From a virus, in the IMG/VR virus record IMGVR_UViG_3300029305_006219: 64,000 nucleotides of DNA, one strand, 5' to 3'. Below the pieces are notes generated by a model. That model searched no databases, had not been told where the DNA came from, and saw only the letters and a program-made list of their open reading frames with translations. Positions 177-63,003 of this stretch are shown piece by piece (the stretch's first letter is position 1; every line of letters starts with the position of its first letter). The translations under genes were made by a program, and so were the position numbers.

Positions 177-196
177 GATATCTTCCTCTTTTTTAC
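159..196. terminator. Bidirectional rho-independent terminator between convergent genes
   Basis: Inverted repeat AGAGGAAGATAT / ATATCTTCCTCT followed by a T-run. It lies between the plus-strand gene and the minus-strand ruvC-like gene. Confidence 0.5.
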
Positions 197-702
197 CACT
201 CTAAAGCAGAGCTATAATCTTTTTCTTTTTTTGGATGTAAATAAGCATGACCAATACAAATTGCGTCTGCAATGTCGTCATTGGTTAAAGATAATCCATA
301 AGCACGGTTTGCAAAGTCTATATCTTTCTATTTTTTCTATTCGCGCTTAGATCCACGTCCATCTTCTATTCCACATACGGAGCGCCAAGAACTAGGATAA
401 ACTAATTCAATTTCTACATTAGGATATTTATCATGAAGCTCGATATGGATTAACGCTTGTAAATACATTAATGCTTTAAATGTATTAGTGTTTTTAGTAT
501 GATCTGGAATAACTTCTTCCATTACAATTTTTTCAATCTTTAACTATTCTACTAATGCTAGTATATTATCAACCATTTTATGGATTCGTTTATATAAATC
601 ATTTGAAGAAGCTGTAATACAAGTCTATCCAATCAACTCTTTGTCTTTAAAAATTGCCACACCTGTTGCTTTAGTTGAGGCATCTAATGCAAGTAAGTAC
701 AT
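193..702 (-). CDS. ruvC: RuvC-like Holliday junction resolvase, read through 4 in-frame TAG codons
   Basis: Joins ORF 337..522 with flanking in-frame segments. N-terminus MYLLALDASTKATGVAIF; C-terminal DDIADAICIGHAYL resembles the RuvC D-A-x-A-x-A-x-x-H motif. TAGs at 337-339, 328-330, 544-546, 625-627. RBS GGAGG upstream of the ATG at 700-702; TAA stop at 193-195. Confidence 0.7.
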
Positions 703-766
703 ATATGCACCTCCATTCTGGTTTTATTATACTATAAAATTTTATAAAAGTCAAAAGGAGCAGAAT

Positions 767-994
767 TTACTTCTGCTCCTTGGCTTTTTGTTCTTGCTCT
801 ATAAGTAATTGATATTGTTGTAAATCTCTTTGATATTCTAATTGGACTTGATTTTGAGTTTCAATATAAATATCTTTTAATAATGCAGCGATTGTAAAAG
901 GCGGTAGATGATAATCATTAACTCCAGCATTTACAAGATTAATAAGATTTTGTTTTAATTGTTCGTAAGCAACAGATTGAGGTAATTGAGCCAT
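767..994 (-). CDS. Hypothetical protein
   Basis: 75-aa ORF with a TAA stop. Confidence 0.35.
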   Translation of the reverse strand: MAQLPQSVAYEQLKQNLINLVNAGVNDYHLPPFTIAALLKDIYIETQNQVQLEYQRDLQQYQLLIEQEQKAKEQK

Positions 995-1479
995 TATTTA
1001 GTTCCTGTACTACCAAATCCGCCTTCTCCGCGCGCGGTAGTTCCAATAGAATTTACCTCATTAAATAGTACTGGTATATATGGAGTAACCACGATTTGTG
1101 CAATACGTTCTCCATGTTCTACTATTTGTACTTCATTTGAAGTATTCTTAAGAGCTACTATTAGTTCTCCTCGATAATCTGAATCAATGATACCTGTTCC
1201 ATTGGCTAATACAAGACCACGCTTTGTAGCCATCCCAGAACGAGGATAAACTGCGCCAAACGTGCCTTGAGGTAGCTCAATAGCAATGCCAGTAGAAATC
1301 TTACGAACTTCGCCTGGAGCAAGGGTGATACGACTTTGCAATTCAAGATCCGCATAAAGATCCCAGCCTGCTGCGTATGTACTGCCCTGCACTGGCTCGT
1401 GCGCAGTGGGTGAAAGTTTTACATAATTTACGTGGCTACGCCACATTCCATTAGTGTCACAAGATGTTACTCCTACCAT
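994..1479 (-). CDS. dut: dUTP diphosphatase (dUTPase)
   Basis: dUTPase motifs (AAGWDLYA, GLVLANGTGIIDSDYRGEL, ARGEGGFGSTG). Internal ATG at 1477-1479 with a GGAG RBS is preferred over the TTG at 1494. Confidence 0.85.
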   Translation of the reverse strand: MVGVTSCDTNGMWRSHVNYVKLSPTAHEPVQGSTYAAGWDLYADLELQSRITLAPGEVRKISTGIAIELPQGTFGAVYPRSGMATKRGLVLANGTGIIDSDYRGELIVALKNTSNEVQIVEHGERIAQIVVTPYIPVLFNEVNSIGTTARGEGGFGSTGTK

Positions 1480-1480
1480 A

Positions 1481-1732
1481 TTAAAATGCTCCAATCTTAT
1501 ATTCTACGCTTGCTTCTCCACAAGGTTCTTTAGGGTCATCGAATACCTTAACCAAAGTTACAATATAATATTCATCAATAATTTCACCCTTTTGTTTGCG
1601 TTCTTTTTTTACCGAAGAGTATTTTGATAAGAGATAGCGCGTATCCGCCTTAGCTGCCTCTATAAGCGCAGCCGCCTCTTTTTCACTATCTGCTCTATGC
1701 TCTTCTGTTGTTTTAAGCAAATATTTAGCCAT
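1481..1732 (-). CDS. Hypothetical protein
   Basis: 83-aa ORF with a TAA stop. Confidence 0.35.
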   Translation of the reverse strand: MAKYLLKTTEEHRADSEKEAAALIEAAKADTRYLLSKYSSVKKERKQKGEIIDEYYIVTLVKVFDDPKEPCGEASVEYKIGAF

Positions 1733-1754
1733 ATCCTTTTATCTCCTTTTATTC

Positions 1755-2036
1755 TTATAGATATTGAAAAGTCAAATCATCTATACTATAAGTTGTTACT
1801 GTTGTTTCTTTTAGTCTTTTTTCAATGCCTTCCATATAATCTTTTGCGCCTGAAAAACTAATATGCTTAATATCATATTTTTTAATAAGCTCGAAAATAA
1901 CTTCATCGAGATCTTCAAATTGAACACCTATTGTGTCAACTATTGCTTTTTCTTTAACGACGCAAATTTTATAAAAAGGGGTTACTGGACTTCCGTGTAT
2001 TAATATTGTATTCATAGACTGCTCCTTAATATTCAA
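1755..2036 (-). CDS. Hypothetical protein
   Basis: 93-aa ORF. Confidence 0.35.
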   Translation of the reverse strand: MNIKEQSMNTILIHGSPVTPFYKICVVKEKAIVDTIGVQFEDLDEVIFELIKKYDIKHISFSGAKDYMEGIEKRLKETTVTTYSIDDLTFQYL

Positions 2037-2704: not shown

Positions 2705-3187
2705 TTAACTAATCCTTTCTGCGTATTGATTGGGAGAAGCCAATTTTACGCCAAGTATTTCATCATAATGTGACTCAGTATTTGGAATATAGCGCCCAAA
2801 TTTTATTATGATGTTTGAAAATTGTTTTAATTGAATTAATTCATTTTCAATCTCATCTTTATTATAACCTGTATAGATAATAATATCATCATTTATAGAA
2901 TAACATTCTCTAAAAACAAAGATAAGATTTAACAGGTCTTCAAATGTATCAAAAGGTTCTAGACCTTGGAAGCATATCGCGCGCGCGATAGGGTTGTTTC
3001 TATAAGCTTGTACTATTGAAGTGTTAGCAATTTCTTTATCAGGTGCGGCCACCAGTGCGCTATTTTGACACACTGGTTGGCCGCATTCACGATCGCATTT
3101 AAAACCTTTACAAATAGGCGTTTCTATTGTCATACAAGGAACTTTATAATTTACAAAATCTTCAAATATAATTCCTTTTATTTTCAT
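2705..3187 (-). CDS. nrdG: Anaerobic ribonucleotide reductase activating protein (NrdG-like radical-SAM activase)
   Basis: Sits immediately downstream of nrdD with ATGA overlap. IIIYTGYNKDEIENE and GLEP motifs resemble NrdG WVWTGY.LDEL and GGDP. The Cys cluster is non-canonical. Confidence 0.55.
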   Translation of the reverse strand: MKIKGIIFEDFVNYKVPCMTIETPICKGFKCDRECGQPVCQNSALVAAPDKEIANTSIVQAYRNNPIARAICFQGLEPFDTFEDLLNLIFVFRECYSINDDIIIYTGYNKDEIENELIQLKQFSNIIIKFGRYIPNTESHYDEILGVKLASPNQYAERIS

Positions 3188-6100
3188 TTATTAATAGGCT
3201 CCCATTTTCTCATTTTATATTCATTAGTTCTTTCTTTTGACCACGTCTTTATAGGGGTGTAAAAGCCAACGATACGAGTATATTCTGTTTCAACTGGTCG
3301 ACCACATACTGGACAAGTGCGTCCATAGAAGGCATGGTTATTATCACAAGCTTGAATCTTGGTATTAAAAGCAAAATATGTTACTCCTGCATCAGAGATA
3401 TAATTAACCATATCCCAAGCCTTATCAAAACTATCAAATGGGGCATCGATATTGGCGTGTAGGATCGAACCTCCATTGCAATATCCATCAAACTCTGCGG
3501 CGATACGTACGCGCTCGGCAAGGGTTGTTTGTATACCAAGCGGAATAAATTGATTACCATAAAGCGGTAAGTCAAAGATGCTCGCTTCCGGATAAAAGAA
3601 TTTGTCTTTTTTCATTAGCTTTGCGGCAGCCGACTCTCCGGGGATCTATTCAGTATTAACGTGATAATCGGCGCCTACCTCTGCAATAAATTCATCTGCC
3701 GTTTGACGTATAGTCTCAAAGATTCTTTTACCAAGCGACGAAGCATTTTCTGTATAGTAAACATTGCCAAATTCATCTGTACGAGTATAGCCAAAACGCT
3801 TCATTGTTTCATATACTCCGATAAAACCAATAGTATTATAAAGATGTTCAAAGTCGACTAACCCATTAGAAAAATTAGGTAATAGTCCTTTTTCAACATT
3901 ACGACGAATAATATTACGTACACAATGTAGTGCTTGAAGATTCAAAAGTGTCAACTTCTTCAATCCACATAGATATTCAAATTCATTAGCACTATCAAGA
4001 GCGAGGCGCGCGAGGTTGATTGTAGAGACTTTAACTGAACCGACTTTTAGTGCGGTACCTCCGATACTATTAAAATAACCTAGGTCTTTAATATCACTCT
4101 TCAAACGACAACAGTTAGAAAGTGAAGTTACTGAATCATCAATAAATAGGTTACTGTCAGACCAGCGCATATTGTGTTTAACTGCCCAGCGCGCAAAATC
4201 TTCATCTTGGAATTTACCTTCTTGTTTTAGTAGAGAGATTGAAAGTACTGGAAAAGTAAACATATTCTTGTCCCTGATATCAGCAACGGTTTCCATATAC
4301 CATTTTTGGAATTCAATAATTTCTTCTTCATAGTCAATCATAAATTCTCCATTAGGGAACTCACTGCCGCCAAATAAAGCTTCGTAGTAAGGACGATCAA
4401 ATACACTGGTATTAGTAAATGCAGATTGCGACCCATCGCGGACATAAGGTTGATTCACTGCGTATACAAAACGCTGGAAGTTTTGACGTGCATATTTCTC
4501 TCCATTTCCGCTACTCTTGATACCGAGATAGTCTTCTTCCATATCCTTATGCCAAAAGTAATACATATAAGGGATGAGATTAGGAAGTCCTACGGCGCCG
4601 GAGGAACGATTAGAAGCATAGCTAATAAACTCTTTAACAAAATCAACAAAAGTAGTTAAATGCTAAGCAGGCTCAGGATTAAAAGGTGCGCCAATAAAAT
4701 ATAGTCCTTTTTCAGCCAGGTCTTTCAGGTCATAAGCAAAACAATTATGAGATAGAATGTTGTTGCAAATAAAATGACCTGTTTTTGTTGTTAAGTCATA
4801 TACCTCAGGGCATTCATCAATATACTCTGAGTTATCAATAACTGAGACCCATCCATAGTTATATTCATATTGCTTGTTTTTAAAATTACCTTTACGAGTT
4901 AAAGGAATATATTTTTCAGCAATTTTAATACTTCCAATACGAGAAAAATATTCTTCGTTCGTTAAAGTGAAGCCAATCCCAAACATTGGTAACTTTTGTT
5001 CGAAGCTTCCAGCTCGATTATATCTAAATGGAGTGCGATCTCCTGCAAAAACCCCTTTGGAATGTAAATACATACTCAATTGATGGCATAGCGTTTCTGA
5101 GGCAATACGGATATGACAATGTCTATTTTTATATCCATCAATAGTACCATCGCCATCGATCATTCCCGCAATAATTCCATCCATAAATTCAGAAGGATAA
5201 GTCATGAAATATGATGGTAACTGCTTAGTTGCAGAAGTCTGACCTTTTAATAGTGAATTTAACCATTCTTCAAAAGGACTAACCTTTAAATAAATTTTTC
5301 TATCTCCACTTTCTGAATATGGAATATCATATTGGTCACAGATATATTTTAATTTTTCAGCTTGAGGAGAATCTAGTTTTTGAGCAATTACAAATTGACT
5401 ATTCAGACTATTTCCTTCGGAAAGAGCCATACCTAATATCCATCCTGTCTCTCTATTATAAGGAATTTGATATACAATTTCTTGATGACTTTCAGAATAT
5501 TTATTAGGCTGTATTGTAAAGACTCGATACTCACTAGTTACATCCTTTGCAGGAATATCTCCACAATCGGTAATAATAGGGTGATCTTCTGTTACAATTT
5601 GTGATAAACCATTTGCTAACTTGATAAAACGCATAGGTTTATTATTTGTGTGTTTAACTGCGCGAGTAATCTTAGTCCAACATTTTTCTCCAGTTTCTTC
5701 ATTAATATCAAGTATCTCGATATTTTTCGGGAAAAGTGCATTTTGTTCAATAGATACATCATATTTTTCTTCTGCTTCTGTATCCATATACAAAATATTT
5801 TCATACAAATTCTTAAGTGCAAAAGTGTATTCACGATGCACCTTGTCTCTTACTGTTACAAGTTCTTCACCCTTATAGCAGTAATGTTTAAAGGTCGAGG
5901 TATCAGCATCATGCATGTAGAGCTGACCAATCCATTCGGCGCGCAACCACTCATTTGCACGTTTAAAACCAAAATGTTTTTGCATCTCATAATGAATTTT
6001 ATTATAAGCTAATAATTTTCTATGAGGTTTTGGCATTTCGTTTAAGAGAGTTACAATATCTTTTTTACTAACATTACTATTGCCATCAATACTCGCGTCA

Positions 6101-6321
6101 GCTACGACTTTGGTATCGATAAATGAACTAATAAAATCTGTGTAACTTAATTGTTCATCAGCAAATCCATTAAGCTTTGCCATTTCAGTTCCAAATTCAT
6201 CTTGCATTTTGTTATAAGCAGTAACAAAATTTTTCTTTAATTTAACATTAACTTCCATATCTCCAATGATATCCTCCTGTTGTTTGTAAAAATCCTTGAC
6301 AGCATCGAGATATGTTTTCAT
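3184..6321 (-). CDS. nrdD: Anaerobic ribonucleoside-triphosphate reductase NrdD, intein-containing, read through 2 in-frame TAG codons
   Basis: ORFs 4663..6333, 3646..4566 and 3184..3615 are one reading frame separated only by TAG at 4663-4665 and 3646-3648. C-terminus has a CPVCG zinc site and a RIVGFYTP glycyl-radical motif. TGA stop overlaps the nrdG ATG. Confidence 0.85.
4744..5880 (-). mobile_element. Intein (about 379 aa) with LAGLIDADG homing endonuclease domain inside nrdD
   Basis: Starts CYKGEEL and ends ILSHN followed by +1 Cys (CFAYDLKDL, aligning with E. coli NrdD FNC-MLIDLKG). Contains LGMALSEGN and IAGMIDGDGTI dodecapeptide blocks. Confidence 0.7.
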
Positions 6322-6922
6322 GATGTATGCCAAGCTCTTTCTCTGCTTCTGCTAGAGATTTAAAGTTTTGATTTAGCTCCACACAATAAACTGGAGTAAC
6401 TCTTTTATCTTCAGATAGAGGAAGATTATTTGATAAATAATCTTCATAGTATGTCCAATGAAATTTATATGCAGTGTGTAATTTTCCACGACAACACGCA
6501 ATAATATTTGCATTAGCAAAACCCTTTAATCGTTCAATTTCTTTTGCGCTATCAAAAACCTTTTGTGTTTCTAAACATATAATTTTTCTTTTTGTTTTAC
6601 AACTATTACTCATTTTTTGACGAGATTCTCTTGAATATTCATTATTCAATCCGCCACTTTTTATATTATAGCCACTATTCACAGTATCATATTTTGTGAT
6701 AAGTTCTTCTTCTTTTTGATTAGCTTCCTGTAATGTTAAGTTCTCATATAAAATAGTCTATTCAAAATTATCCCATCCATATTTTTCAATAGCATGATAA
6801 AATTTAACACAGCCAGTATAGTTAGAGGGGTGACAGCGACGCGTGATATCTTTAGACTAACCAATATATTTTTTGCCATTTATTTTATTGGTATAACAAT
6901 AAATGCAATATTGATTATCCAT
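6248..6922 (-). CDS. GIY-YIG homing endonuclease (HE1) between nrdH and nrdD, 2 in-frame TAG
   Basis: N-terminus MDNQYCIYCYTNKINGKKYIG[TAG]SKDITRRCHP...YGWDNFE[TAG]TILYENL, then the C-terminus of ORF 6248..6682 with two C-x-x-G...GY.W.Y repeats. TAGs at 6857-6859 and 6758-6760. Confidence 0.8.
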
Positions 6923-11978: not shown

Positions 11979-12866
11979 TTATTCTATATACCTCCAATAA
12001 TATCCATATGCTTTTCTTTGCTTTCTGGCAGCTGCGCAAATATTACTTTTATCTTGTAATCCTAGAGCTCTAGCTGCATCTGCTCCAGAGTCATATTCAG
12101 CAATTATGCTATTATCTAACGTGAGTTGTTGAATTCTTTTCTTAGGGCGTCCACTAGATAACTTATTCTAATAAATTTGTACCCACTCTTGGATATCTCT
12201 TTCATCTGCTTTGTATTTCCAAAGAAAGCCGTAAGCACTTTTCTATTTCTAAGCACATACCTAACTAATTGCTGTTTGTTGAAAACCATTAGCCCTGCCG
12301 CACTCTGAGGCTGATTCCCATTCTTGGATAAAATATCCATTTAAATCATACTGTAGTACAGGATAAGCACATCGTTTTGCTACTGCGCAACCAAATCTTG
12401 CGGCTATCTCTTCTCGTGAAATTCCTGCTCCTCTTAATCGAAGTCGGGCAGTTTTTTTTGAACAGCCTATTTTTTCAGCAATTTCTTTAATTAAAAGACC
12501 TTGATTCCAGCCATCAAGAAAAAGCTGAGTGGGATATAGAATCGCCCCTTGTCCTCCAAGAACTGCATTGTATCCATTATTAGGGTCGGTGCTGTCAAAA
12601 TATTCTATATAATACATTTCTCGCTCAAATCTAATTTCATCAGGGCATTTCTCTAGCGTTTCAATAATAAAATTTTGTTCTCCGTATTTTCGTATAGCAC
12701 AAGAAATATGATAATAATATCCATGATCACCTTCTTTAGAATGAGCCCTTCTTATATGTTCCCTCCACCTTGTCTCAACCCCTCGAATAGTTTCTCCTAT
12801 ATAAACTTTATTGTTTATTTGGTTGGTAATTTTATAAATATAAGCCATAAAATGCTCTCCTTTCAC
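11979..12866 (-). CDS. GIY-YIG homing endonuclease (HE2), 4 in-frame TAG
   Basis: MAYIYKITNQINNKVYIGET...R..H, then reading through TAGs at 12261-63, 12249-51, 12243-45, 12168-70 gives two C-terminal repeats KSAYGFLWKY and RKQRKAYGYYWRY. TAA at 11979-81 lies 3 nt before the dnaE ATG. ORF 12116..12340 in the other frame is spurious. Confidence 0.8.
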
Positions 12867-13625: not shown

Positions 13626-13944
13626 TTATTTTCCATGCTCCTATTTCAAAGTTATTTAGATCTATTAGCGGCGGATCGCCAATGAAAGCGATTTTTATTG
13701 GCTTTTGAAGTTCGCTTACGCCAAGTATCCAAAGAGAATTGGGATCTAGCCTCTCTGGGTCGTAGTATACTTCTACAGGTATCTGTTTTTCTTTTATTTT
13801 TTGTCTGAATAAAAGATACAATTCTTCAAAAGATAGCTCTCTTACATCAGTCGTTGCTTTTATGTTCTCAATTAGATCGTGTAATTCTGCTTCTATATAT
13901 GGTTTCATTGCTACCTCATTTCCGTTGATAATATTCTTCTTCAT
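13609..13944 (-). CDS. Hypothetical protein
   Basis: 111-aa ORF. Confidence 0.35.
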   Translation of the reverse strand: MKKNIINGNEVAMKPYIEAELHDLIENIKATTDVRELSFEELYLLFRQKIKEKQIPVEVYYDPERLDPNSLWILGVSELQKPIKIAFIGDPPLIDLNNFEIGAWKINDRKI

Positions 13945-14887
13945 TTTCTTTTGTTAATAGAAATCTTGAAGTTTCTAATTTTAAATCGTTTAGGTCATAC
14001 TCTTGATCATATGGGATACGAATTAATGGAATATTATGTTCAAAACAATATTTATTTTTAAGTAAATCGTTGTTGCGAGTTTCTTCAAAATGCTCTTTTG
14101 TATTCCAAGTATTTATAGTATCTTTGCGATATGAAAAATGTTGTTGTCCATCAAATTCAATAATATAAGAGTCTTCTATATAAAAATCAAATCTAGCCTT
14201 TGCACCAGAGGCTAACAAACAGTCTTTAAAACTCTTTTGGTTTGTAAAGCTAATATCGGCTTCTTGTAACATTTGTGTAATTTTTGTTTCATTATAGGAT
14301 GCGCCTAAACAGCCGCAACTTTTTGTTTGCCCCACAGTTAAATAGCCAGAAGGAACTTCCGTATAGTTACCGCAATCACATAAGCATTTCCAAATTACAT
14401 AAGATCCAATCCTTTTTTCAGTTGGTTCTAAAGCAGTTAATAAGCCAAATTTTTGATTACTTAAATCAATAAAATGCCTAGGTTTACAAAATCCACAGCT
14501 TTTGGTGTCGCCAGCCGTAAGACTTGAGCCCATTACTATATGCGCCCTTCCACAAGAACATTTGCAATTCCAAAAGGCATGGCCACCTTCTGTTTTGGCT
14601 AAACTTAAAACTGTAAGTTCTCCAAAAGTTTGTCCTGTTAAATCTCGAACTGGTCTTCCGCCACTTTTATTTTCGTGTTTAAGACAGCCACAAGATTTAG
14701 TATGATCTGATGTTAAATGGTTTTTAGACACCACTAATAAAGTCTTTGCTTCACATTGACATTCGCAGAGCCAAAAGACACCTTTTCTCCCTGTTGGATG
14801 CTCTACTCTATATAGCGCTTTTAAACGATTAAACTATTTACCAGAAATATTTTCAGCTTGCCCTATTGGAATTTGTTTGTACTCCAT
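13916..14887 (-). CDS. Zinc-ribbon-repeat protein with C-terminal PD-(D/E)xK/Vsr-like nuclease domain, 1 in-frame TAG
   Basis: Starts MEYKQIPIGQAENISGK[TAG]FNRL... (TAG at 14834-36) and continues in frame into ORF 13916..14734. Repeated W.C.C.CG...TKSCGC motifs; C-terminal YIIEFDGQQHF resembles Vsr/DUF559-type nucleases. Confidence 0.5.
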
Positions 14888-45262: not shown

Positions 45263-46062
45263 TAGATAATATAGAATTTATTTGTACCTGCGCTAAGAGT
45301 GAAAGTTCCTGCTTCACCATATTGTACAAATTTAGACAAATCAGTGATGATAGTTCCCGTTTTCCATATCGCAGCATCCATTGTTATTTCTTCGGCGCCA
45401 AGTGTAACAACACCAGTATTAGCAATACTTAAAGTTGTTTCTGTTGTTTCTATTGTAGGCACTCCTTCAATTTGAACGAAAATAGCTGTTCCTGTAGGAA
45501 TTGTCATTGTGACATCTTCTTTATCATAAATCTCAAGAGTAAATAATACATCCTTATCTTCTTCTGTAATACCAGGCATCGCATCAAAAGTGAAAGTAAA
45601 AGCAGAAGGATCTCCTGAAGGAGCCATTGCTAAATTAAGGTTAGATTGTAATTTTGCTCTTGGAATTACAATATATGCTGGATGATCATTACCAGATTCA
45701 TCTCTAAATAAAGTATCAGCAGTAATTTTATAATATCCAGCAAAAGATGTTGTTTTAGATGTAAATTTAATACCATTATTAGTATCTTTTACATCTGCTC
45801 CAGTTAAGGCATAAAAGCTTTCCATTGTAATAAGTGCATCTTCAACGGTAAAGGTAAGTGTTTTTTCACCTTCCCAAGCCATTAAACGAGAGTTTCCTTT
45901 TCCTCCTTGTGCATAAACGGTAGTAGAAGCACCTTCAAGAGTAGAAGTTTTGGCTGTCTCAATGTCGAATTGCGCTGGACCAACACCAGAAAGTTTTTCT
46001 AAGTGCATATCGCATACTTCACGAATACCAAATCTCATATGTATAATCTCCTTTATTCTCAA
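45262..46062 (-). CDS. Hypothetical protein, possibly structural (Thr/Gly-rich beta-type)
   Basis: 266-aa ORF. Confidence 0.3.
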   Translation of the reverse strand: MRIKEIIHMRFGIREVCDMHLEKLSGVGPAQFDIETAKTSTLEGASTTVYAQGGKGNSRLMAWEGEKTLTFTVEDALITMESFYALTGADVKDTNNGIKFTSKTTSFAGYYKITADTLFRDESGNDHPAYIVIPRAKLQSNLNLAMAPSGDPSAFTFTFDAMPGITEEDKDVLFTLEIYDKEDVTMTIPTGTAIFVQIEGVPTIETTETTLSIANTGVVTLGAEEITMDAAIWKTGTIITDLSKFVQYGEAGTFTLSAGTNKFYII

Positions 46063-49313: not shown

Positions 49314-49730
49314 TCATAGTAGTTTCTCCATTTCCGACACATCAACGCCTTTGCCGCGAAGATTGTCGATGCACTCTTTCAAGTATTCATCGTTATGTTC
49401 GGGATAAATGATTTTACTCATTTGGTTTGCATCCATCCAAATATTAGATAATACTGTGGTATCAACCCAGTTAATATCATGTTGTAAAACATTTCCTCTC
49501 CAGTTAGGATCTTCCCAAATGAGATCAGGGTGATATCCTCTTTTCTGCATTTCCATCATAATGTGCCAATGATATGCAACCAATAGTTCAGGTCTATGAG
49601 TAAACACATAATCAACTGTCGCATGTTTCTTACCCCAACCTTTACCTCTTAAAGCGGCACATTCGCGATGTTGACCTAGCAATTGTTGTCTAGGAAGGTA
49701 GGGTATTAGTTTTTGATGCCAGAGTCTCAC
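49314..49730 (-). CDS. Pyrimidine-dimer DNA glycosylase (T4 endonuclease V/DenV-like)
   Basis: N-terminal MRLWHQKLIPYLPRQQLLGQHRECAALRGKGWGKKH resembles T4 endoV [27 protein letters not shown]. Confidence 0.45.
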   Translation of the reverse strand: MRLWHQKLIPYLPRQQLLGQHRECAALRGKGWGKKHATVDYVFTHRPELLVAYHWHIMMEMQKRGYHPDLIWEDPNWRGNVLQHDINWVDTTVLSNIWMDANQMSKIIYPEHNDEYLKECIDNLRGKGVDVSEMEKLL

Positions 49731-50353
49731 GCTTTTATCCCCCTTATTTCAAATCCATAACAAAATAACTTTTCAACATCAGGTTGAACAGCTATTGTTT
49801 TAATCTTTTTACGCATTTTTTTACTTTCAAATTCTGCGCCCATCTGTTTTTTAATAAGCGTAAGCGCTTCTGTGATGGCTATGTCACCATTTTTTACTGT
49901 AAATTTATTTTTTACTTTACTTGAGGCGGGCGCATTTCGAGGAATAATCTCAAAAGCATCATATTTTTGACCGTAAGGACAACCTGCAGAAACTATTTCT
50001 TTTGAGTTGTCAATTTTGCCAATAAAATCCATCTTTGCGCGTTTAATATTTTCTTCATAAGTTACCCACTCAAGATTTTCTAAGCTATTATCTCTTTTAT
50101 TATGATTTTTGTGATCAACAGTAAGATTTTCAGCCTCATCCGTGGGGCGCTAAGTAAGCATCACTAAACGATGAGCAAGTATTTTCGTGCAAGTTGTGCA
50201 ATCAACTTTAACACAACAATACCCTTTCTGACTTATTTTAATAGGCAAATCGGCTTTATCTCTATTACGAAAGCGCCCATGCGTTGATACATAAACACCA
50301 TAATCTTTATTAAATTTCCATCTTTCAAAGTGAATTTTAAGTGTTGGCAACAT
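49727..50353 (-). CDS. HNH homing endonuclease, 1 in-frame TAG
   Basis: ORF 50150..50425 (GYCCVKVDC...AHRLVMLT) reads through TAG 50150-52 into LTVDHKNHNKRDNSLENLEWVTYEEN (the HNH core) and ORF 49727..50032. The upstream M at 50425 lies inside the repeat module; ATG 50351-53 is preferred. Confidence 0.7.
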
Positions 50354-51639: not shown

Positions 51640-54477
51640 TCACGAGTTATAATCGTTGTTTGCTATTATCATATCAGTTAGTTTTACAAAACCCTGAGAC
51701 ATTGAGTTGATGTCGACGTAAAACTGATTATCATAATAATTTGTATCGATAACCTGATTATATTCATCAACATAAAATCCGCTTGTGTTATATGGAGTGT
51801 TAATCCACTCTTGCCAAGTCATACCTTCTAAGGCGGTGTATGATGCTCCGTTAACGGTAAAGGTAATTATAGGCAATGTTCTTGTAAGAGTATATGTGTG
51901 ATTTGCTACGATTGTATCACTTGTTTTAACATATTTATATATGATGTTACCATCCTCATCTTCGTCTTCTCTCAAACATATAAGATTTCCCGTCATGTCC
52001 TCACAAACATATCCAGGTATCAATGGATCACTCCAATAATTTTCAGAAGGAACATAGTAACTGCCGTCGCTGGCGTTCATAAAATCAGCCCAAGTCATAC
52101 CCTCGGTGACTGTATATGATTCATCTCCTGCATCGTTACCGTCAATATAGAATGTTATTGTGCTAGGTGTTGGCTCTTCTTCGTTTTCAAAATTAAAGTA
52201 AATATCTATTTGAGTATCTGTTGAAGTCGTATAATCAATTGTAAGGTTATTGTTTTCAATATCGATAGAGTTAATATTTGAAGTTAAATTATCAATACCA
52301 TTTAAGGTTATTAATTCATTGTTCTACGAACCCATATTTATTGTTTTAGTATTTTCAGTTGCAAGAAGCTCTATTGATATTGGGCTTGTTATTTCTACTT
52401 CAATCCCTACAGCATCGATATAATAGTTACATCTTCCTATAATAATATCCAAATCACGACAATGTCTACCGCTACCATCATTAAGCCATACTGCGCCGAT
52501 ATATCCATCTCCATCTTCATCGATAATAGATTCTGCTACACAGTTTTCTTCTCCGTTAACAGTAAGAGAGTTCCAAATAACAAAATCCTTTGTATTATAC
52601 GCGCTATCGCACCATTCATACCACGTCATACCAGGCTCAGCCATGTATGTTATTCCTTCAATAGTGAAAGTGATTTCAAGTGTAATATATGAATCATCTA
52701 TATAATATACACCATTTTCTGTAATTGTATCATTATAAGATACCATCATCTTGATATCATCGCTATTGTAGTATACTGCGCCGATATATCCATCTCCATC
52801 TTCATCAGTTGCAGATGTTGCTATTAAGTCTTGATTATATGAGCTATTATAAGGAACAAAACCTGCTTTATTATATGAGCTATTACACCAATCGCTCCAA
52901 ATCATATTCCTATTAGATGTGTATTCTGTTCCATTAATAGTAAATGTTATTGTACTTGTTTCGTTTTCAAAACTAAAGTAAGCATCTATTTGAGTGTCGG
53001 TTGAAGTTGCATAATTAATTGTAAGTTCATTATTTTCATTAATATTAATAGAGTTGATATTTGAAGTTAAATTGTCAATACCATTTAATGTTAATCTATT
53101 CTATGAATCTATATTTACTGTTTTAGTATTTTCAGCGGCAAGAAGCTCTATTCTCATTGGACTTGTTGTTCCTGCTGGTATGTCTCCAATTGTGTATGTA
53201 TAATTTGCCATAATAAGACTACTTGGGAAAACTGGCTTACTACCATCATTGCAATATACCGCTACTTGTGATCCCTCTTCTACCACAAAACCATCTTGAA
53301 TAATATAGTATGTACCATATTCACTATTCACCCAGTCTTGCCAAGTCATACCTTCTTCAAATCTATAGAACTCGTCTCCCGTTAGATTATCTTCGATATA
53401 AAATATTGAGGTTGAAATAGGTAATGAATCTGAAACTATATATGAATGATTTATTCTAATAACATCACTGGGTTTAACAGCAGTGTACTCATTTAAAAGC
53501 ACATATCGACCTGTAGAATTTTCTATTATATAATCATTTTGAACTACATATTCTGCATCATCATTACTTGAAATACTATCAATCCATTCTTGCCAAGTCA
53601 TACCACTCTCGGCGAAATATGATTCTTTTTGCATATCATTTCCTTCAATATAAAATGTTATCATACCTACAATATAATCTCTATAAACACTCCAATTTGT
53701 TGCTGCTTTCCAATCATCAACAAGTTCATAGGGAACTCTAATTTTACAATTTGAAGGAATGTTTAAAAAAGCACTTGTATTAGCAAGAGTTGGTATACTT
53801 GTATGAAAAGAAAAATCGTAATATTGCATTGAAGTACAGTTGGCAAATGCGCTTGATCTAATAGTTGTAACGCCATTAGGAAAATTCATTTGTGTAAGAG
53901 CCTTACACCCATAAAAAGCTTGCTCTCCAATTGCTGTAATATTACTAGGTAGAGTTATGCCTGAAAGAACTTTACAACCGCTAAACATGCGATATCCAAT
54001 CCAGGAAATATTACTGGGTAAAGATATATCTATAAGAGATGTACAATTATAAAATGCTTCATCTCCTATTTTTGTAATACTATCGGGTAGACTTAAACTC
54101 TTAAGCTTAGCACAATTAGTAAAAACACCTACTCCAAGTTGTGTAATAGTGTTAGGAATAATTATATTTGCATTTGACTCAAGTCCATGACAATTTGAAA
54201 AAGCATAATCACCAATATAAGTAATATTATTTGGTATATTTATTTTTGTAAGATATGTGCAGCCCTCAAAAGCAGCTCGTCCTATTTTTGTTATATTAGC
54301 TAAATCCTGTGTAGTTATTTCAGTAATTGTTCTATCAATTATTTTAGCTAGTTTACTTTGTTCTTCTGTATCTGCATTTAAAGCCGTTACAATAATATCA
54401 CGATCGCAATATTTACCTGCTGTTTTTAAACGAATGGAAGATCCGCTTGTTACATTTATATTATGTTCAGCCATCAT
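51640..54477 (-). CDS. BspA-type leucine-rich-repeat tail fiber/receptor-binding protein with C-terminal tandem repeats, 2 in-frame TAG
   Basis: ORFs 53101..54477, 52324..52905 and 51640..52098 are one frame joined by TAG 53101-03 and TAG 52324-26. LRR_5 repeats (NITYIGDYAFSNC...). Repeated (R/S)IELLA(A/T)ENTKT(V/I)N(I/M)(D/G)S and GMTWQEW blocks. Confidence 0.6.
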
Positions 54478-54794
54478 TCTACCTCCCCATTATAAACAGG
54501 TAGGGCATTTATTACTGCTGAAACTATTTCATTTTTATCTTCATCTGTCCAATAATCCGTTCCTTTTACAGGAGTATAACCATCGTCACCTTTCTCTCCA
54601 GTTAATTCTAGAAAAGGAAGATTTCCTACCTTAGTCGTTCCATCTCCTATTTTTAATCGAGGCTTAGATTCTCCTCCTTTACCGTCAGAATAAATAATTA
54701 ACTCTCCTTTTAAAGGTATAAAAGTCGTAGCTAATTCCCATTCTGCGGCCGTACCTATTTTATGCTAGATACGAGCATTAATTTGTTTTGCCAT
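54474..54794 (-). CDS. Tail fiber N-terminal anchor-domain protein, 1 in-frame TAG
   Basis: MAKQINARI[TAG]HKIGTAAEWELATTFIPLKGELIIYSDG...RLKIGDGTTKVGNLPFL, plus a collagen-like GEKGDDG. TGA overlaps the ATG of the LRR gene. RBS AAAGGAG. TAG at 54765-67. Confidence 0.55.
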
Positions 54795-54999: not shown

Positions 55000-57480
55000 T
55001 TATTCTTTTGAAGCCTCTACAATATTTTTCATTGTTTTCTCAAGGCTGGTTCCACGAAGCAGAGTGTTCCATGTCTCAGCGAGAGATTCACCCTTAGCCA
55101 TAGCGGCAGGCGCGAGGTTTTTGCCAAGTCCATTCATAATCTCTGCATTTGCCTGAGACTCAAGTGCTGCTACAAGATCAGGGCTAATTGCCGCAAATAT
55201 CTTAGCAACGTTGTCTGCATATGCCTTCTGTTTTGCTTCTTCTATTGCAGCAAGCTGCTTCTCAGTTGCGATCTTGGCATCATCTGCCGCCTTATCACGA
55301 GCAAGCTGTGCTTTCTGAATTGCATCGAAGATAGGCTGCATATCAGACTTGGCAGTAGCTTCAGCTGTTGCCTCAGCACGCTTCATAGCGGCGATCTCCG
55401 CCTGATTCTTTAGCTTTTCTTCTTCAGCCTTCTGGTTAAGCTCAAGCGCATACATCTTATTCTGGTGATTAAGTTCTGCCTCTTCACGATCGAATTTAGC
55501 AATCTGCTTAACCATTTCAGATTTACGAGTAGCATCAGAGAGTTCAAGAGTTTTCTGAATCATTTCCTTCTGGTGTGCTTCCATCATCTTAGCGACTTGC
55601 GCCTCAACCTGAACATTGAGAACTTCAACATCAGTTACAAGCATACCATTTTCTTTAAAGAGTCTTCCGTTATGAGGCGCCTGATCAGTTTCTGCTTTAG
55701 CTACATTGCCAAGCGCAGTGTTTCTGATGATGTCTGCCGCTTTTGCGTAGAACTCTTCAATATTATACTTCTTAGCTTCGCGCTTAAGGAGACTGCGCAT
55801 TCTGTCACACATATGTTTTACATAGTTATCTACAGAGAACCACTTATCCTTATATTCGGGAAGGAAGTTTACATTATAGGAGAGAAGGAACTTAACATCA
55901 ACAAAGTCCTTTGTCTGAACACTGATGATATCAGATACCTTATTATTGTCAATACGGAGATATGCAGTCTGAATCAGATTGTCTGTTGTCTTAGGCTTAC
56001 CTGTTGAAAGATTTACAATTTCAAGAGTCTCATCATACTCAAGGAGTCGAGTAGCAGGACCAATGATTGTCTCTCTCTTACCAGACTTGGATACAACATT
56101 TACTGCATAGCCAGTCCATACATTGATAGCAACAACTCCATCATACTTTGTATCAAGCACAATAGTACGAGGCTTTGTATAAGATACACCGCGCGAAATA
56201 TTAGCGGTTGCCGCAAAAATCGCAAGAGCATCATTTTGATTTGCAGTGCTATATGCATTATTAATTATGTCTGTCTTGTTAGACTTACCATTGCGCGCAT
56301 CGCGCTCAGCCTTTGCTTCAGAAAGACCGAGGTTATATTCAAGCGCCTCACGGTTGCCAGGATAGAAAGTTTCGCACTCCTTAACAGAAAGTACTCTCTT
56401 AACAACTACCTCAAAACGAGGATCAGGAAGATACATAGCGGGACCCTTGACCATCTTAACAGTTCCCTTAATTCTATCAAGGATATAGCGTCCTTCGCCC
56501 TCAGGAATTGCTATTGCATGATGCATATACTTACCGTCATACTGAATAAGTGCGTGCTCAGGGCGAGGATAGTAAATCATCTGATTATTACCTGTAATAA
56601 AGAGTTCTTCGCCAACAGGATGCTTAACTCCATTCTCTGTATATTCTGCGATAACCTTTACATAAATACCGCTAATAGGCGAAAGTTCAAGTGCGCGGAA
56701 TATTACGCCCTTCTGAGGGGTCTGTACGAAGGTCTGTGTAGGTGTAGGGAATACAACCTTGGGTCCATGAGCATAGACCTTTTCACCGTTTTCATCTTTA
56801 AGGATACAATACTCAAGGCGCTCAAGGGTGACTGCATCGCGCACATACTCAGAAGAGTTATCTTCACAAGCGAGAACTTCAATACCCGTAGGAGGAATAT
56901 AGAAAGATACTTCAGTACCCTTGATTACAAGTTGCTGACCTGTAAAGTAGGTCTCTTTCTTAACGATCTCTTTACCTTCTGCATCGAGAATAGTTGCGGA
57001 AGCAGCGTTCTTGGCGGCTGCCACTGCGTCATAAACGCGAGCAATGAGGTACTGGTTAGAACGAAGCTTATGTCCTCGAATAACTTTTGCCATCTGACCA
57101 GGGAATAGCGCAAAGGAAGCAGGTCCAGAAATATTAACCTTAATACCAATTTTCATATTATCGGGAGTAACATTCGACTTACCTGCAAGAGGGTATACAC
57201 CATCTGCCGTAGGGTTCTTGAGAATCACATACCAACCCTCGGGCGCCGATACAAATAGCTGTTTTGCTCGCTCGAAGTCTTTTACTTCATCGAATTTCTT
57301 TGTCTTATTGTTGAAAATAACACAAGTCTGCTGCTGAGAAATAGTTACCATAGCAGGTCCTGCATAGGTTCTAATCTCACCGTTAGTGCAGTCCTGAATC
57401 TGGACGTATTCATTGACTGCAAGTACAAGGTCGCGTGTGCGACCTCTATTGTCATTTGCATTGTAATTAAAATCATTCAT
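55000..57480 (-). CDS. Large flotillin/MVP-like SPFH-domain coiled-coil protein (function unknown, possibly structural)
   Basis: 826 aa. C-terminal Ala/Glu/Lys-rich coiled coil typical of the flotillin/YqiK C-terminus. No TAG. Confidence 0.35.
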   Translation of the reverse strand: MNDFNYNANDNRGRTRDLVLAVNEYVQIQDCTNGEIRTYAGPAMVTISQQQTCVIFNNKTKKFDEVKDFERAKQLFVSAPEGWYVILKNPTADGVYPLAGKSNVTPDNMKIGIKVNISGPASFALFPGQMAKVIRGHKLRSNQYLIARVYDAVAAAKNAASATILDAEGKEIVKKETYFTGQQLVIKGTEVSFYIPPTGIEVLACEDNSSEYVRDAVTLERLEYCILKDENGEKVYAHGPKVVFPTPTQTFVQTPQKGVIFRALELSPISGIYVKVIAEYTENGVKHPVGEELFITGNNQMIYYPRPEHALIQYDGKYMHHAIAIPEGEGRYILDRIKGTVKMVKGPAMYLPDPRFEVVVKRVLSVKECETFYPGNREALEYNLGLSEAKAERDARNGKSNKTDIINNAYSTANQNDALAIFAATANISRGVSYTKPRTIVLDTKYDGVVAINVWTGYAVNVVSKSGKRETIIGPATRLLEYDETLEIVNLSTGKPKTTDNLIQTAYLRIDNNKVSDIISVQTKDFVDVKFLLSYNVNFLPEYKDKWFSVDNYVKHMCDRMRSLLKREAKKYNIEEFYAKAADIIRNTALGNVAKAETDQAPHNGRLFKENGMLVTDVEVLNVQVEAQVAKMMEAHQKEMIQKTLELSDATRKSEMVKQIAKFDREEAELNHQNKMYALELNQKAEEEKLKNQAEIAAMKRAEATAEATAKSDMQPIFDAIQKAQLARDKAADDAKIATEKQLAAIEEAKQKAYADNVAKIFAAISPDLVAALESQANAEIMNGLGKNLAPAAMAKGESLAETWNTLLRGTSLEKTMKNIVEASKE

Positions 57481-58795: not shown

Positions 58796-59221
58796 TTATT
58801 CTACTTCGTGTTTATAATTAAGTGTTTTGAATTGGCGGCGATCGATGCATTTAAGCTTCTCGCTTTCATTGATATTTTCTAGCAACAACTCACAATTAGC
58901 GCCAGTTGCACTAAGATTACGTATAGACTCCATCATTTCTGATAAAGAAACACCGTATGATTTTGCTGCTGTTGCTATTTTCTGCAGAGCATTGCTCATA
59001 CTACTCTGTGCTGTTTGTAATTGTTCTTCTTTAGTACCCATTCTCACTTCTAACTCCTTCCATTGATGTACACCATCTCCTATTTTTACTGTGACGATTC
59101 CTTGATCAGAATCAATTGCGCAACCCACTTCGCCTTTCATTAATATTGGATTATTTTCATTCCAAGCCTATGGAGTATCATTTTTCATAATAAGGCGCGT
59201 ACTTAGATTATAAGTTGCCAT
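58796..59221 (-). CDS. Tail-fiber N-terminal-domain-like protein, 1 in-frame TAG
   Basis: MATYNLSTRLIMKNDTP[TAG]AWNENNPILMKGEVGCAIDSDQGIVTVKIGDGVHQWKEL continues into ORF 58796..59140. TAG at 59168-70. RBS AAAGGAG. Confidence 0.5.
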
Positions 59222-59988: not shown

Positions 59989-59989
59989 A

Positions 59990-61100: not shown

Positions 61101-61119
61101 AGGCTTGGAAGTAGCTCCA

Positions 61120-61195
61120 TGGTACCGACTCTGGGATTCGAACCCAGAAATTTTAGTTCCTAAGACTAACGCCTATGCCATTCGGCTAAGTCGGC
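61120..61195 (-). tRNA. Class-I tRNA with anticodon UAG (would read CUA/CUN); identity undetermined
   Basis: GCCGACU UA GCCGAAUGGCAUAGGCG UUAGU CUUAGGA ACUAA AAUUU CUGGGUUCGAAUCCCAG AGUCGGU A CCA. Short variable loop, A73, G1.U72. Confidence 0.6.
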
Positions 61196-61512
61196 ATAAA
61201 GGTTGTTGATTTTGCGGTAACAACCAACCCGCTGAAGGGAGGAAAACCATGAAAAGTCTCGTACTTGGAGGGAACTGAGAATTACGATATCTCGACATCA
61301 ACCTTAACAGGGTTGCGCTCTGCCTCTGAGCTAAGCTCCCATATTGCGCCTGTGAGGTTTACTTCAGTAGCGCCAACTGAAGGTGACTTACTTCGCTTCT
61401 TTATATACCGTTTTCCGCTATTGCTCCATACCTCGTTACCATATCGCGGTGAACCGCACCTTGATCTGAGTCGGGAGTAGTTTAGTCACTAATCCGTGTT
61501 AACGGTTATATT

Positions 61513-62163
61513 TTAATCAGCCTACCATTTCCAAATGAAACCATAAGCAGATTTTCTAATTCCATTTGCACACTCTCGAATGTGCGTTGAAATACCTTTT
61601 ACTTTCACTGAAGATGTTAAATTATTATCTATTAAATACTGAGAAGCATCTGTTAAAGAAGAAAAACTTTGAATATATTCATTAGTTTTTTTATCAAACA
61701 TTTTTACAGCTTTGCTAAACAACTCTTTATTAATTGTTTGAGCAGTTTTTAATACGCCTCCTCGTTGATGAATAACAATATATACGCTATCTACTGAAAT
61801 ATTTAATTTTTTTGCCACTTCTGTTGCATTTTGCAAAACTTCATAAGTGGAATAGATTAAATCATAATCTAAATAACGTTTTCCATCTCCTCCTAAAGTA
61901 GCATTATAACCATTTTTAAATGATTGTTTTTTCTCAATCCAAAAGATTTCTCTTTCAGAAGGATTATCTGTTTCTTCAAGCAATTCTATATGAAAATGTT
62001 CAATTCCATATTTGTTTATTGCTCGATATAAAGGACGATCCTTGCATCTTTCCTTTTGATAATCACTACAATGCTCTTTCCAACGTTTTTCTATAGACTT
62101 TTCTGTTTTACCAATGTATATTTTACCATTTATATCATTGGTAATTTGATAAATGTATGCCAT
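61513..62163 (-). CDS. GIY-YIG homing endonuclease (HE6) in the tRNA cluster, 1 in-frame TAG near the C-terminus
   Basis: MAYIYQITNDINGKIYIGKT...R..H...NGYNATLGGDG...; C-terminal CANGIRKSAYGFIWKW[TAG]AI then TAA. RBS AAAGGAG. Confidence 0.75.
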
Positions 62164-62244
62164 ATTTAAATAGCTCCTTTTTATACTTATTATCAACTTT
62201 TAGCTTAACCCATCGCACACCACGTGGAGGTAGTTGATTAAGTG

Positions 62245-62316
62245 CGACCTGGGGTGGCTGGATTTGAACCAGCGGGTGTCAGAGTCAAAGTCTGATGCCT
62301 TGCCACTTGGCTACAC
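62245..62316 (-). tRNA. tRNA-Gln (UUG)
   Basis: UGGGGUG...anticodon loop CUUUGAC...GCUGGUUCAAAUCCAGC CACCCCA G. U1-A72 and G73. CCA is not encoded. Confidence 0.8.
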
Positions 62317-62561
62317 CCCAATAATATCTTAATTACATTAACTAATAGGAGTGATTTGCACTATTCCAAAGGCGATTACTCAACCTTCCTCCTTTAATCT
62401 TGTACAAGATTTGTGAACAACCTAAGTTACCGTTTCACTACGGAGTTAATGTTATTACGATTAGCGACCCCTTTCGGGCAATTTTGAATCGAGAATTTGT
62501 TGATGGAAACTCAGGTCAGGAGTTTATATTGCATCGCTTTATTTCTTACATATATATTATA

Positions 62562-63003
62562 TCATAAATTTTTTAGAAAATCAATTAATCGATAATTTTC
62601 TACCAAATTTATCCCTTTAGTTTGATTATTTTTTGGAGGATCTTGTCTAAAAGTAATTACTTTTTTAGTACCAATTTCTTCAATTGGCAGAATAAGAATT
62701 TCATTCCATTCTACGATATAAAAACAAAAATAATCTATGTCATTCTCGTAAGTGCTATAATGTTTATTGGTAGTATGGTTTGTACTGCTTGCACAAGGAC
62801 AGGCAATAGAATTATTTTCAGTAATTTGTTGATTACAATACTTTACTTGAATACGATTTAATTTTCCATTAAACTCTGCTATCAAATCATAACGAGCATT
62901 ATCTCCAAAAGGGATTGCTACCTAAATGTTATTTTTAACAAATTCAGCAAGTACAACTGCCTCACCAATATTGCCTTTATCTTTACTATTCATATTACTC
63001 CTT
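62562..63003 (-). CDS. PD-(D/E)xK (Hjc/endonuclease-like) nuclease, 1 in-frame TAG
   Basis: MNSKDKGNIGEAVVLAEFVKNNI[TAG]VAIPFGDNARYDLIAEFNGKLNRIQVKY continues into ORF 62562..62885. TAG at 62932-34. RBS AGAAGGAG. It is immediately adjacent to the interrupted tRNA-Lys. Confidence 0.45.

Follow-up and report, generated by a model that had tools for sequence, protein, structure and literature searches.

Where a phage reads the stop codon TAG as an amino acid, it may be asked whether the reassigned codon is used evenly across its genes or kept out of particular ones. The question is raised by a 64,000-nucleotide stretch of viral DNA (IMG/VR record IMGVR_UViG_3300029305_006219; the whole of this stretch is called the window below), which encodes a suppressor tRNA with the anticodon CUA. 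When genes were called with TAG as a sense codon, 80 curated genes comprising 18,759 codons were obtained, and these contain 31 in-frame TAGs. A sequence-only reading of the window had proposed that TAG is concentrated in homing endonuclease (HE), recombination/repair and tail-fibre genes and is absent from the largest replication genes, suggesting suppressor-dependent translational control. The unevenness proves to be non-random and conserved among relatives of the phage, and the TAG-free state of the replisome, topoisomerase and ligase genes is kept by purifying selection. What the phage would gain from this arrangement is considered after the evidence for it.

Gene identities were taken from Pfam and PHROGs matches and tRNAs from ARAGORN and Rfam, the latter at its gathering threshold. 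ARAGORN found eight tRNAs in the window, one of them with the anticodon CUA. As read from sequence, which is also the basis for what is said of tRNA charging and of the residue inserted, TAG is glutamine in the window (the known code 15), since domain matches run through TAG, TAG aligns with Gln columns, no gene stops at TAG and the tRNA(CUA) is Gln-like. Stop codons are TAA in 54 genes and TGA in the other 26. The NRDD match and an alignment with the NrdD structure of T. maritima run across both TAGs of the anaerobic ribonucleotide reductase gene, the second of which lies opposite the Q of 'NIEQVPAE'. The PDDEXK_5 match covers residues 1-136 and thus crosses the TAG at residue 24, and the HNH_3 and GIY-YIG domain matches also span their TAGs; all of these domains are matched over their full length. 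All 32 of 32 relatives have Gln at the TAG column of RecJ, the TAG column of a small winged helix-turn-helix (wHTH) protein most often has Q, and in the close relative L001 TAG occupies the Q position of the RuvC motif 'YLQA', which is otherwise invariant. Few TAG sites of the window itself fall in conserved columns, and one RuvC TAG is at a Tyr/His column. The tRNA(CUA) has the acceptor stem UGGGG...CCCCU and has U1, G2-G5 and the discriminator G73 in common with the tRNA-Gln(UUG) of the window (41063-41137 compared with 62248-62321).

It is very improbable that translation really stops at the in-frame TAGs and that the genes carrying them are fused open reading frames, pseudogenes or genes with mis-called starts. 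Several N-terminal TAGs do lie upstream of likely starts (genes at 44373, 26686, 22225, 7215 and 994), and these were not counted; in the GIY-YIG gene 61513-62163 the TAG at 61522-61524 is two codons before a TAA and may be a real stop. However, Pfam and PHROG matches and PDB alignments cross the TAGs, orthologs in relatives are intact over the same regions, and a tRNA(CUA) is encoded in a gene set of which no member ends in TAG. Homology running through the codons rules out the artefact for at least 25 of the 31.

If TAG were used uniformly once the genes are correctly delimited, the proposal of the sequence-only reading would fall. In the curated set, a dispersion test of TAG counts against gene length gives p ~1e-3, and the heterogeneity stays when the HE genes are left out (p 6e-4). 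HE genes carry 14 TAGs in 2,179 codons, as against 17 in 16,563 codons elsewhere (odds ratio 6.3, p 3e-6), whereas the replication, sigma-factor and vault-like genes have none in 6,812 codons (p 1.4e-6). Every gene that had been named as TAG-free is so, namely those for DnaE, the two topoisomerase subunits, LigA, DnaB, primase, Dda, RNA ligase, the sigma factor and the 826-residue vault-like protein (P(0 TAG) 3e-6), and the four TAGs of ruvC were recovered, in 169 codons. Other parts of the proposal need trimming. Of the eight HE genes that stand free or are carried by an insertion, seven have the stated one to four TAGs; the intron-borne LAGLIDADG open reading frame (26001-26636) has none. 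Concentration by class holds for the HE genes, but the tail-fibre-like genes, with four TAGs in 1,192 codons, are not significantly enriched by themselves (p 0.13). The largest genes are TAG-free as far as replication is concerned, but NrdD, which at 1,024 residues is among the largest, has two TAGs, both in the extein.

The placement of TAG is uneven also within genes and along the DNA. Twelve of the 31 TAGs lie in the first 40 codons of their genes, a stretch that accounts for only 12% of the codons in the genes concerned (p 2e-4), and in 11 of the 17 TAG-bearing genes the first TAG is at codons 10-38, where about five would be expected (p 0.001). This N-terminal bias is weaker in the relatives described below (88 of 336 TAGs, compared with 16.6% expected), where the counts are not phylogenetically independent. 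TAG genes occur as single genes flanked by TAG-free genes, and long blocks in one code are absent: the GIY-YIG gene 11979-12848 lies by DnaE, that at 19802-20554 by primase and that at 6248-6922 by glutaredoxin. As a consequence for annotation, standard-code gene callers would fragment 17 of the 80 genes.

Three scans of IMG/VR, around the homologs of DnaE, GyrB and the vault-like protein, yielded 206 loci with 50-88% amino-acid identity, and the 54 loci with at least two in-frame TAGs in orthologs of window genes are treated as recoded relatives. TAGs in the homologs of dnaE, topoisomerase or ligA would have spoken against the sequence-only reading, but the counts obtained do not refute it. 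In these relatives DnaE has one TAG in 30,004 codons (0.03 per 1,000), GyrB none in 17,603, GyrA one in 17,782 (0.06 per 1,000) and LigA none in 12,193. Primase (5,122 codons), Dda (6,583 codons) and the vault-like protein (5,757 codons) are likewise without TAG, and DnaB has two in 6,000 codons (0.3 per 1,000). The same genomes have 60 TAGs in 1,888 codons of RuvC (32 per 1,000), 42 in 1,180 codons of a coiled-coil GIY-YIG protein (36 per 1,000), 112 in 9,326 codons of RecJ (12 per 1,000) and 41 in 3,565 codons of the HNH endonuclease of the type found at 13916 (11.5 per 1,000), and GIY-YIG HE genes range from 9 to 32 per 1,000. At the conserved Gln columns of DnaE, GyrB, GyrA and LigA in the recoded relatives, both CAA and CAG occur in 38 of 38 columns, yet TAG accounts for 0 of 917 Gln codons. 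At the conserved Glu columns of TAG-free genes, GAA and GAG are both present in 94 of 105 and TAG in none. Synonymous change is thus saturated while TAG is absent, which argues for purifying selection and not for chance or lack of time.

An alternative, also put forward by the sequence-only reading, is that the TAG-rich genes, HE genes above all, were recently transferred from recoded phages with more TAG and have not yet been adjusted. HE genes are mobile, have the lowest GC (0.28-0.36) and the lowest GC content at third codon positions (GC3; 0.15-0.24) in the window, and the GIY-YIG, PDDEXK_5, HNH_3 and LAGLIDADG genes have orthologs at the same position in only one to six loci each, compared with 12-28 for core genes. 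Horizontal origin may contribute for HE genes. The explanation does not work for RuvC, for RecJ or for the coiled-coil GIY-YIG gene; these, like the AAA_24 and phrog_6721 genes, are clade-wide and syntenic and are TAG-rich in many relatives, mostly at other positions. Moreover, the equally mobile LAGLIDADG intron gene and the NrdD intein (4744-5880) are without TAG, and the zeros of DnaE, gyrase and LigA in the face of saturated synonymous change are left unexplained. As a general account of the TAG map, recent transfer is improbable.

Transcription signals give no indication in the sequence that the TAG genes form a separate transcriptional class. The sequence-only reading had proposed checking whether the suppressor tRNA sits in a late or middle unit. 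It is not in a late one; it has its own sigma-70-type promoter (TTGACA-17-TATAAT, 12/12) and lies between the RNase H and topoisomerase genes, inside the TAG-free replication module. The 12-bp hairpin just 3' of its CCA is a possible terminator or processing site, although it was not among the hairpins picked out by the terminator scan. Sigma-70-type promoters were likewise predicted for the TAG-bearing RuvC, wHTH, HNH_3 and Mtd_N/BspA genes, and, often right after a terminator hairpin, for the GyrB, LigA, sigma-factor, vault-like and SSB-like genes. A promoter scan of the window revealed no difference in promoter class that would set TAG genes apart from TAG-free ones. For several HE genes directly up- or downstream of TAG-free genes no promoter or terminator was predicted in between, as with the GIY-YIG gene 11979-12848 and DnaE, or with primase, the GIY-YIG gene 19802-20554 and RecJ. 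As TAG and TAG-free genes are interleaved in this manner, it is at translation that they would have to be told apart, if at all.

We consider it reasonably probable that suppression in this phage is limited or delayed, that the replication genes have been purged of TAG for this reason, and that nucleases and tail fibres tolerate or exploit the codon. The Gln-like tRNA(CUA) would decode TAG in a standard-code host in competition with the host release factor 1, so that the full-length yield of a gene with n TAGs would be approximately the suppression efficiency to the power n, and would rise as the tRNA accumulates. Genes needed at once or in quantity, such as those of the replisome, topoisomerase, ligase, sigma factor and vault-like protein, would be purged of TAG; products needed late or in low amount, such as HE, RuvC, RecJ, the coiled-coil GIY-YIG protein and the tail-fibre-like proteins, could tolerate or exploit it. 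With TAG often near the N-terminus, aborted products would be short. The pay-off would be delayed or limited translation of the TAG genes, and the sequence evidence is consistent both with exploitation for regulation and with mere tolerance. The sequence-only reading is supported in part: the unevenness is real, selected and alike in 54 relatives, as a model of suppressor-limited translation would predict.

Several observations nevertheless weigh against this account. TAG is missing from a virion structural protein (45262-46038, phrog_2729) and from the vault-like protein, but NrdD, usually of early/middle function, has two, so the phrase 'late or structural genes' in the sequence-only reading was too broad. 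The single promoter type serves TAG-rich and TAG-free genes alike, and gives no independent sign that TAG genes are late. The N-terminal bias would be equally predicted if TAG were merely a slightly costly codon. In the TAG-bearing genes the 31 TAGs are close in number to the CAGs (26), as would result from neutral drift of CAG to TAG in tolerant genes, and positive selection for TAG is therefore not demonstrated. The model predicts most strongly for the structural and lysis modules, and these are not part of the window.

The relation of TAG to base composition bears on a second explanation. When TAG per gene was set against GC3, as the sequence-only reading had proposed, TAG density was found to fall with GC3 (Spearman rho -0.36, p 0.001), and 29 of the 31 TAGs are in genes with GC3 <0.28. 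TAG-free genes use far more CAG, which supplies 28 of 58 Gln codons in DnaE and 30 of 33 in the vault-like gene, the latter suggesting that the vault-like protein is highly expressed. On this explanation TAG would be an inefficient codon without a regulatory role, cleared by selection for efficiency from highly expressed, long or essential genes and left to drift to mutation-selection balance in weakly expressed, fast-evolving or selfish ones. The mechanism, limited suppression, is that of the account given above, and the two differ only on whether its outcome is exploited. The low GC3 and scarce CAG of the TAG genes and their near-equal TAG and CAG counts agree with an unregulated codon, as do the vault-like, SSB-like, GyrB and gp30.3 genes, which are TAG-free with the strong CAG preference typical of the high-expression class; and TAG density among the genes of the relatives forms a continuous gradient, not two classes. 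However, eight genes with GC3 <0.28 (those for Dda, a Hint-domain protein, the virion protein, a C1 peptidase, the LAGLIDADG protein, guanylate kinase, NrdG and an AAA_33 kinase) have no TAG in 2,033 codons, where about 6.5 would be expected from the rate of their class (29 per 9,018). GC3 alone is thus insufficient to explain the unevenness, and Dda, NrdG and the AAA_33 kinase are TAG-free in the relatives as well. The TAG-rich set is also functionally coherent, with 23 of the 31 TAGs in nuclease or nuclease-like genes, and in the lineage discussed next, RuvC has TAG at 50 of 91 Glu codons. A codon without any regulatory role is for these reasons regarded as rather unlikely. RuvC was also considered as a case of positive selection for TAG, both from that ratio and from the window, where TAG makes up four of five Gln codons, but this was rejected because an AT-biased neutral equilibrium could give similar ratios.

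When the relatives and the window were examined together at columns at least 70% conserved among the non-TAG sequences, 93 of 121 TAGs fell at Glu columns and six at Gln columns, although Glu columns are only 359 of the 5,372 conserved columns. The Glu signal comes from about 30 columns in at least 10 gene families, several of which are 100% Glu in 33-58 sequences. In L052, L069 and L118, TAG encodes the Glu of the RuvC motif '(I/V)xxE(E/D)V', which by likeness to RuvC family enzymes would be the catalytic Glu. The Glu-type relatives comprise L052, L064, L066, L067, L069, L071, L072, L118, L035, L023, L034, L036, L037 and others (for example, contig IMGVR_UViG_3300021399_000006). In the window, L001, L013, L130 and L162, by contrast, conserved Gln columns are the ones that carry TAG. 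The gene-by-gene map and ranking of TAG are alike in the Gln-type and Glu-type groups, with none in replisome, topoisomerase or ligase genes and many in RuvC and RecJ. The odds appear slightly better than even that a single clade, in which DnaE is at least 59% identical to that of the window, uses TAG in two senses, as Gln in the window and the relatives closest to it and as Glu in a sister group. In that case the TAG map would be a selected translational gate on particular genes, one that outlived a change in codon meaning.

The tRNAs of the two groups were compared for the same question. ARAGORN found no tRNAs on 44 DnaE-centred loci, and a Glu-type suppressor was reached through the neighbourhoods of GyrB and the vault gene and then by walking along one contig (IMGVR_UViG_3300037400_003528). 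The first five acceptor pairs of this tRNA(CUA) (L207:4917-4993, minus strand) match those of the tRNA-Glu(UUC) of the same genome (L207:10152-10227, minus strand), including G1·U72 and U4·G69, as does the discriminator A73; this is a single genome. Whole-tRNA identity is about 60-70% for all pairs and singles out no parent tRNA for either suppressor; the acceptor-stem comparison alone is informative, with one genome on the Glu side. In hosts that make Gln-tRNA via GluRS and GatCAB, conversion of the attached Glu to Gln could depend on a minor alteration of the suppressor's acceptor stem, and such a change may set the meaning of TAG. Common descent of the two suppressors had been considered from their identical anticodon arm, TGGTCTCTAAAACCA, and was dropped because this 15-mer is widespread, occurring in 49 IMG/VR suppressor tRNA(CUA) genes (loci L208-L306) whose acceptor stems are in many cases unrelated; 15 contigs, most of them of ~78-137 kb, share one variant. 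In the literature searched, no description of TAG as Glu in phages was found; the Lak phage paper noted occasional Glu alignments and concluded Gln. If confirmed, the sister lineage would show that related phages can differ in the amino acid assigned to a recoded stop codon, and it could matter more than the main finding.

Some further tRNAs and TAG sites were noted among the relatives. The tRNA(CUA) of L199 (20489-20585) is 97 nt long and has a long extra arm, L162 has a tRNA(UCA) at 3640-3715, and the AAA_24 ortholog of L055 has TAG where 53 of 53 sequences have Trp. In the window itself, Rfam gave two more tRNA-like matches that ARAGORN did not call, 63011-63161 and 63686-63754 (both minus strand). 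The former spans 151 nt, is possibly a tRNA gene with an insertion, and adjoins the PDDEXK_5 endonuclease gene.

All 80 curated genes, and with them all credible genes, are on the minus strand of the window, which has a GC content of ~36% and a negative GC skew throughout. Replication genes encode DnaE, a GyrA/GyrB-like topoisomerase, LigA, DnaB, primase and Dda; recombination and repair are represented by RecJ, a Sak4-like AAA_24 protein, the RuvC-like resolvase and DenV, and nucleotide metabolism by the intein-containing NrdD, NrdG, dUTPase and guanylate kinase. RNase H, an RNA ligase, a sigma-70 family factor and the 826-residue protein resembling the major vault protein (MVP) are also encoded, together with five GIY-YIG and three other HEs and a tail-fibre-like set of two proteins with the tail-fibre N-terminal domain Mtd_N and one BspA-type leucine-rich repeat (LRR) protein. 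Capsid, portal, terminase and lysis genes fall outside the window, and among its genes none for a release factor or an aminoacyl-tRNA synthetase was seen. The coordinates are collected in the table.

Table. Features discussed in the text, in order of position. Numbers in brackets are amino-acid (aa) positions of TAG codons in the product.
Feature	Position	Strand	TAG	Evidence
Terminator-like hairpin, RuvC gene	190-161	-		promoter/terminator scan
RuvC-like Holliday junction resolvase, 169 aa	193-702	-	4 (26, 53, 122, 125)	phrog_159, E 1e-19
RuvC promoter	754-726	-		promoter/terminator scan
Terminator-like hairpin, RuvC gene	781-755	-		promoter/terminator scan
Small hypothetical protein, 64 aa	2511-2705	-	1 (50)	phrog_38239
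NrdD anaerobic ribonucleotide reductase, 1,024 aa including intein	3184-6258	-	2 (532, 871)	Pfam NRDD, E 9e-84
GIY-YIG HE	6248-6922	-	2 (22, 55)	Pfam GIY-YIG and I-HmuI NUMOD-like
DnaE (DNA polymerase III alpha), 1,324 aa	8001-11975	-	0	Pfam
GIY-YIG + NUMOD1 HE, directly upstream of DnaE	11979-12848	-	4 (196, 200, 202, 227)	Pfam
HNH-type HE	13916-14887	-	1 (18)	phrog_374, E 3e-48; phrog_9084
Dda-like superfamily 1 (SF1) helicase	14892-16079	-	0	Pfam AAA_30, UvrD_C_2
RecJ-like exonuclease	17999-19792	-	1 (18)	Pfam DHH, RecJ_OB
GIY-YIG HE between primase and RecJ	19802-20554	-	2 (19, 31)	Pfam
DNA primase	20551-21666	-	0	phrog_47, E 1e-31
DnaB-like helicase	22786-24330	-	0	Pfam DnaB, DnaB_C
GIY-YIG HE inside insertion	30470-31417	-	2 (32, 268)	Pfam
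Coiled-coil + GIY-YIG protein, exon 1	31583-32566	-	4 (38, 45, 92, 199)	tblastn with L081 ortholog
Small winged-helix protein (wHTH)	32618-32869	-	1 (25)	PHROGs
wHTH gene promoter, sigma-70-type, 12/12	32962-32934	-		promoter scan
LigA, NAD-dependent DNA ligase	33197-35209	-	0	Pfam
GyrA-like subunit, type II topoisomerase	36141-38483	-	0	Pfam
GyrB-like subunit, type II topoisomerase	38499-40409	-	0	Pfam
12-bp hairpin 3' of suppressor tRNA	41027-41055	-		read from sequence
Suppressor tRNA, anticodon CUA	41063-41137	-		ARAGORN; Rfam tRNA, 58.9 bits; alignment and fold
Suppressor tRNA promoter, sigma-70-type	41276-41248	-		promoter scan and sequence read
RNA ligase	46144-47580	-	0	phrog_968, E 1.5e-56
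Sigma-70 family factor	47596-48531	-	0	Pfam Sigma70 regions r1.2 to r4
HNH_3 endonuclease	49727-50353	-	1 (68, within HNH domain)	Pfam HNH_3
HNH_3 promoter, sigma-70-type	50425-50397	-		promoter scan
BspA-type LRR protein, tail-fibre-like pair	51640-54477	-	2 (459, 718)	Pfam LRR_5
Mtd_N protein, tail-fibre-like pair	54474-54794	-	1 (10)	Pfam Mtd_N
Mtd_N/BspA pair promoter, sigma-70-type	54956-54928	-		promoter scan
Vault-like protein, 826 aa, MVP shoulder/repeat domains	55000-57480	-	0	Pfam MVP_shoulder, E 9e-26
Mtd_N-like tail-fibre N-terminal protein	58796-59221	-	1 (18)	PHROGs tail-fibre families
GIY-YIG + NUMOD1 endonuclease in tRNA array	61513-62163	-	1 (214 of 216)	Pfam
PD-(D/E)XK endonuclease (PDDEXK_5) in tRNA array	62562-62993	-	1 (24)	Pfam, E 5e-32

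Three genes are interrupted. A group I intron (25713-26068; Rfam, 78 bits) adjoins the LAGLIDADG gene, and together they split the Sak4-like AAA_24 gene into parts at 26686-27201 and 25224-25715 (minus strand). The NrdD intein, on the minus strand, is ~379 residues long, extends from 'CYKGEEL' to 'ILSHN' and has LAGLIDADG-type motifs. The coiled-coil GIY-YIG gene (30086-32566, minus strand) is split after 'YIGQA' and is contiguous in the relative L081, whose ortholog was used in tblastn to map the two exons, the second being at 30086-30307. The insertion of ~1.27 kb between them (~30308-31582) holds a GIY-YIG HE gene, and Rfam at its gathering threshold reported no intron there. Elsewhere, three tandem sigma-70-type promoters with extended -10 TG (28296-28411, minus strand) lie upstream of a CAG-rich gene (27272-28237) that may be SSB-like.

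The phage group to which the window belongs is, judged from these searches, without a close relative in the INPHARED phage collection. A nucleotide search with DnaE against that phage collection gave short, distant matches only, and the best tblastn matches of DnaE in INPHARED, at 39-40% identity, are to SPbeta-like phages. The consensus -35/-10 promoters, the Shine-Dalgarno sites and the SPbeta-like DnaE suggest that the host is probably a member of the Firmicutes using the standard code. That particular genes avoid a recoded stop codon is shown by the window independently and with clean statistics.

In laboratory amber suppression, as with the supE tRNA-Gln(CUA) of E. coli, the suppressor competes with release factor 1 and the yield drops with each amber codon. 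The suppressor and ambers of the window, in contrast, are natural, conserved in the clade and gene-specific in distribution. Alternatively coded gut phages of the Garnet, Amethyst, Jade, Sapphire, Agate, Topaz, crAss-like and Lak clades have been described by Borges et al. (10.1101/2021.08.26.457843), whose model is that recoding delays translation until suppression is established and that the code-change machinery is kept in standard code; supporting proteomic evidence in crAss-like phages was provided by Peters et al. Suppressor-dependent control is this published hypothesis, and the data from the window fit it, although timing is not readable from sequence. TAG-free replication genes and a recoded subset were already known from other recoded phages. 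The phages of Borges et al. and the window are alike in that the suppressor tRNA lies in a region compatible with the standard code, that the replication machinery is without the recoded stop, and that some genes are enriched for this codon, which in Agate phages include one for a group I intron endonuclease. They differ in that the TAG genes of the window are interleaved singly and do not form a contiguous structural/lysis block, and in that the enriched class consists mostly of nucleases (HE, RuvC and RecJ).

The phAss-1/'Phassvirus' group (PMC10607447) has ~135-kb genomes with a DnaE-type polymerase and ~30 tRNA genes including a tRNA-Sup(CTA), and reads TAG as Gln; in the polymerase, the suppressor and the code it resembles the window, a likeness drawn by description only. 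TAG was reported there in virion genes and in 'several DNA-processing enzymes', with the TAGs of dUTPase and NrdG varying by genome, and that paper is without statistics on the gene-by-gene distribution. CrAss-like phages with block-wise dual coding (Mgcod, 10.1101/2022.06.29.495998; Yutin et al., PMC7886860) likewise combine standard-compatible and TAG-read-through genes in one genome, but in long one-code blocks, whereas in the window TAG and TAG-free genes take turns over distances of a few kilobases. Relative to what has been published, the window adds purifying selection acting despite saturated synonymous sites, an interleaving of genes one by one that would place any control at translation, and a TAG usage that favours nucleases and positions early in the gene.

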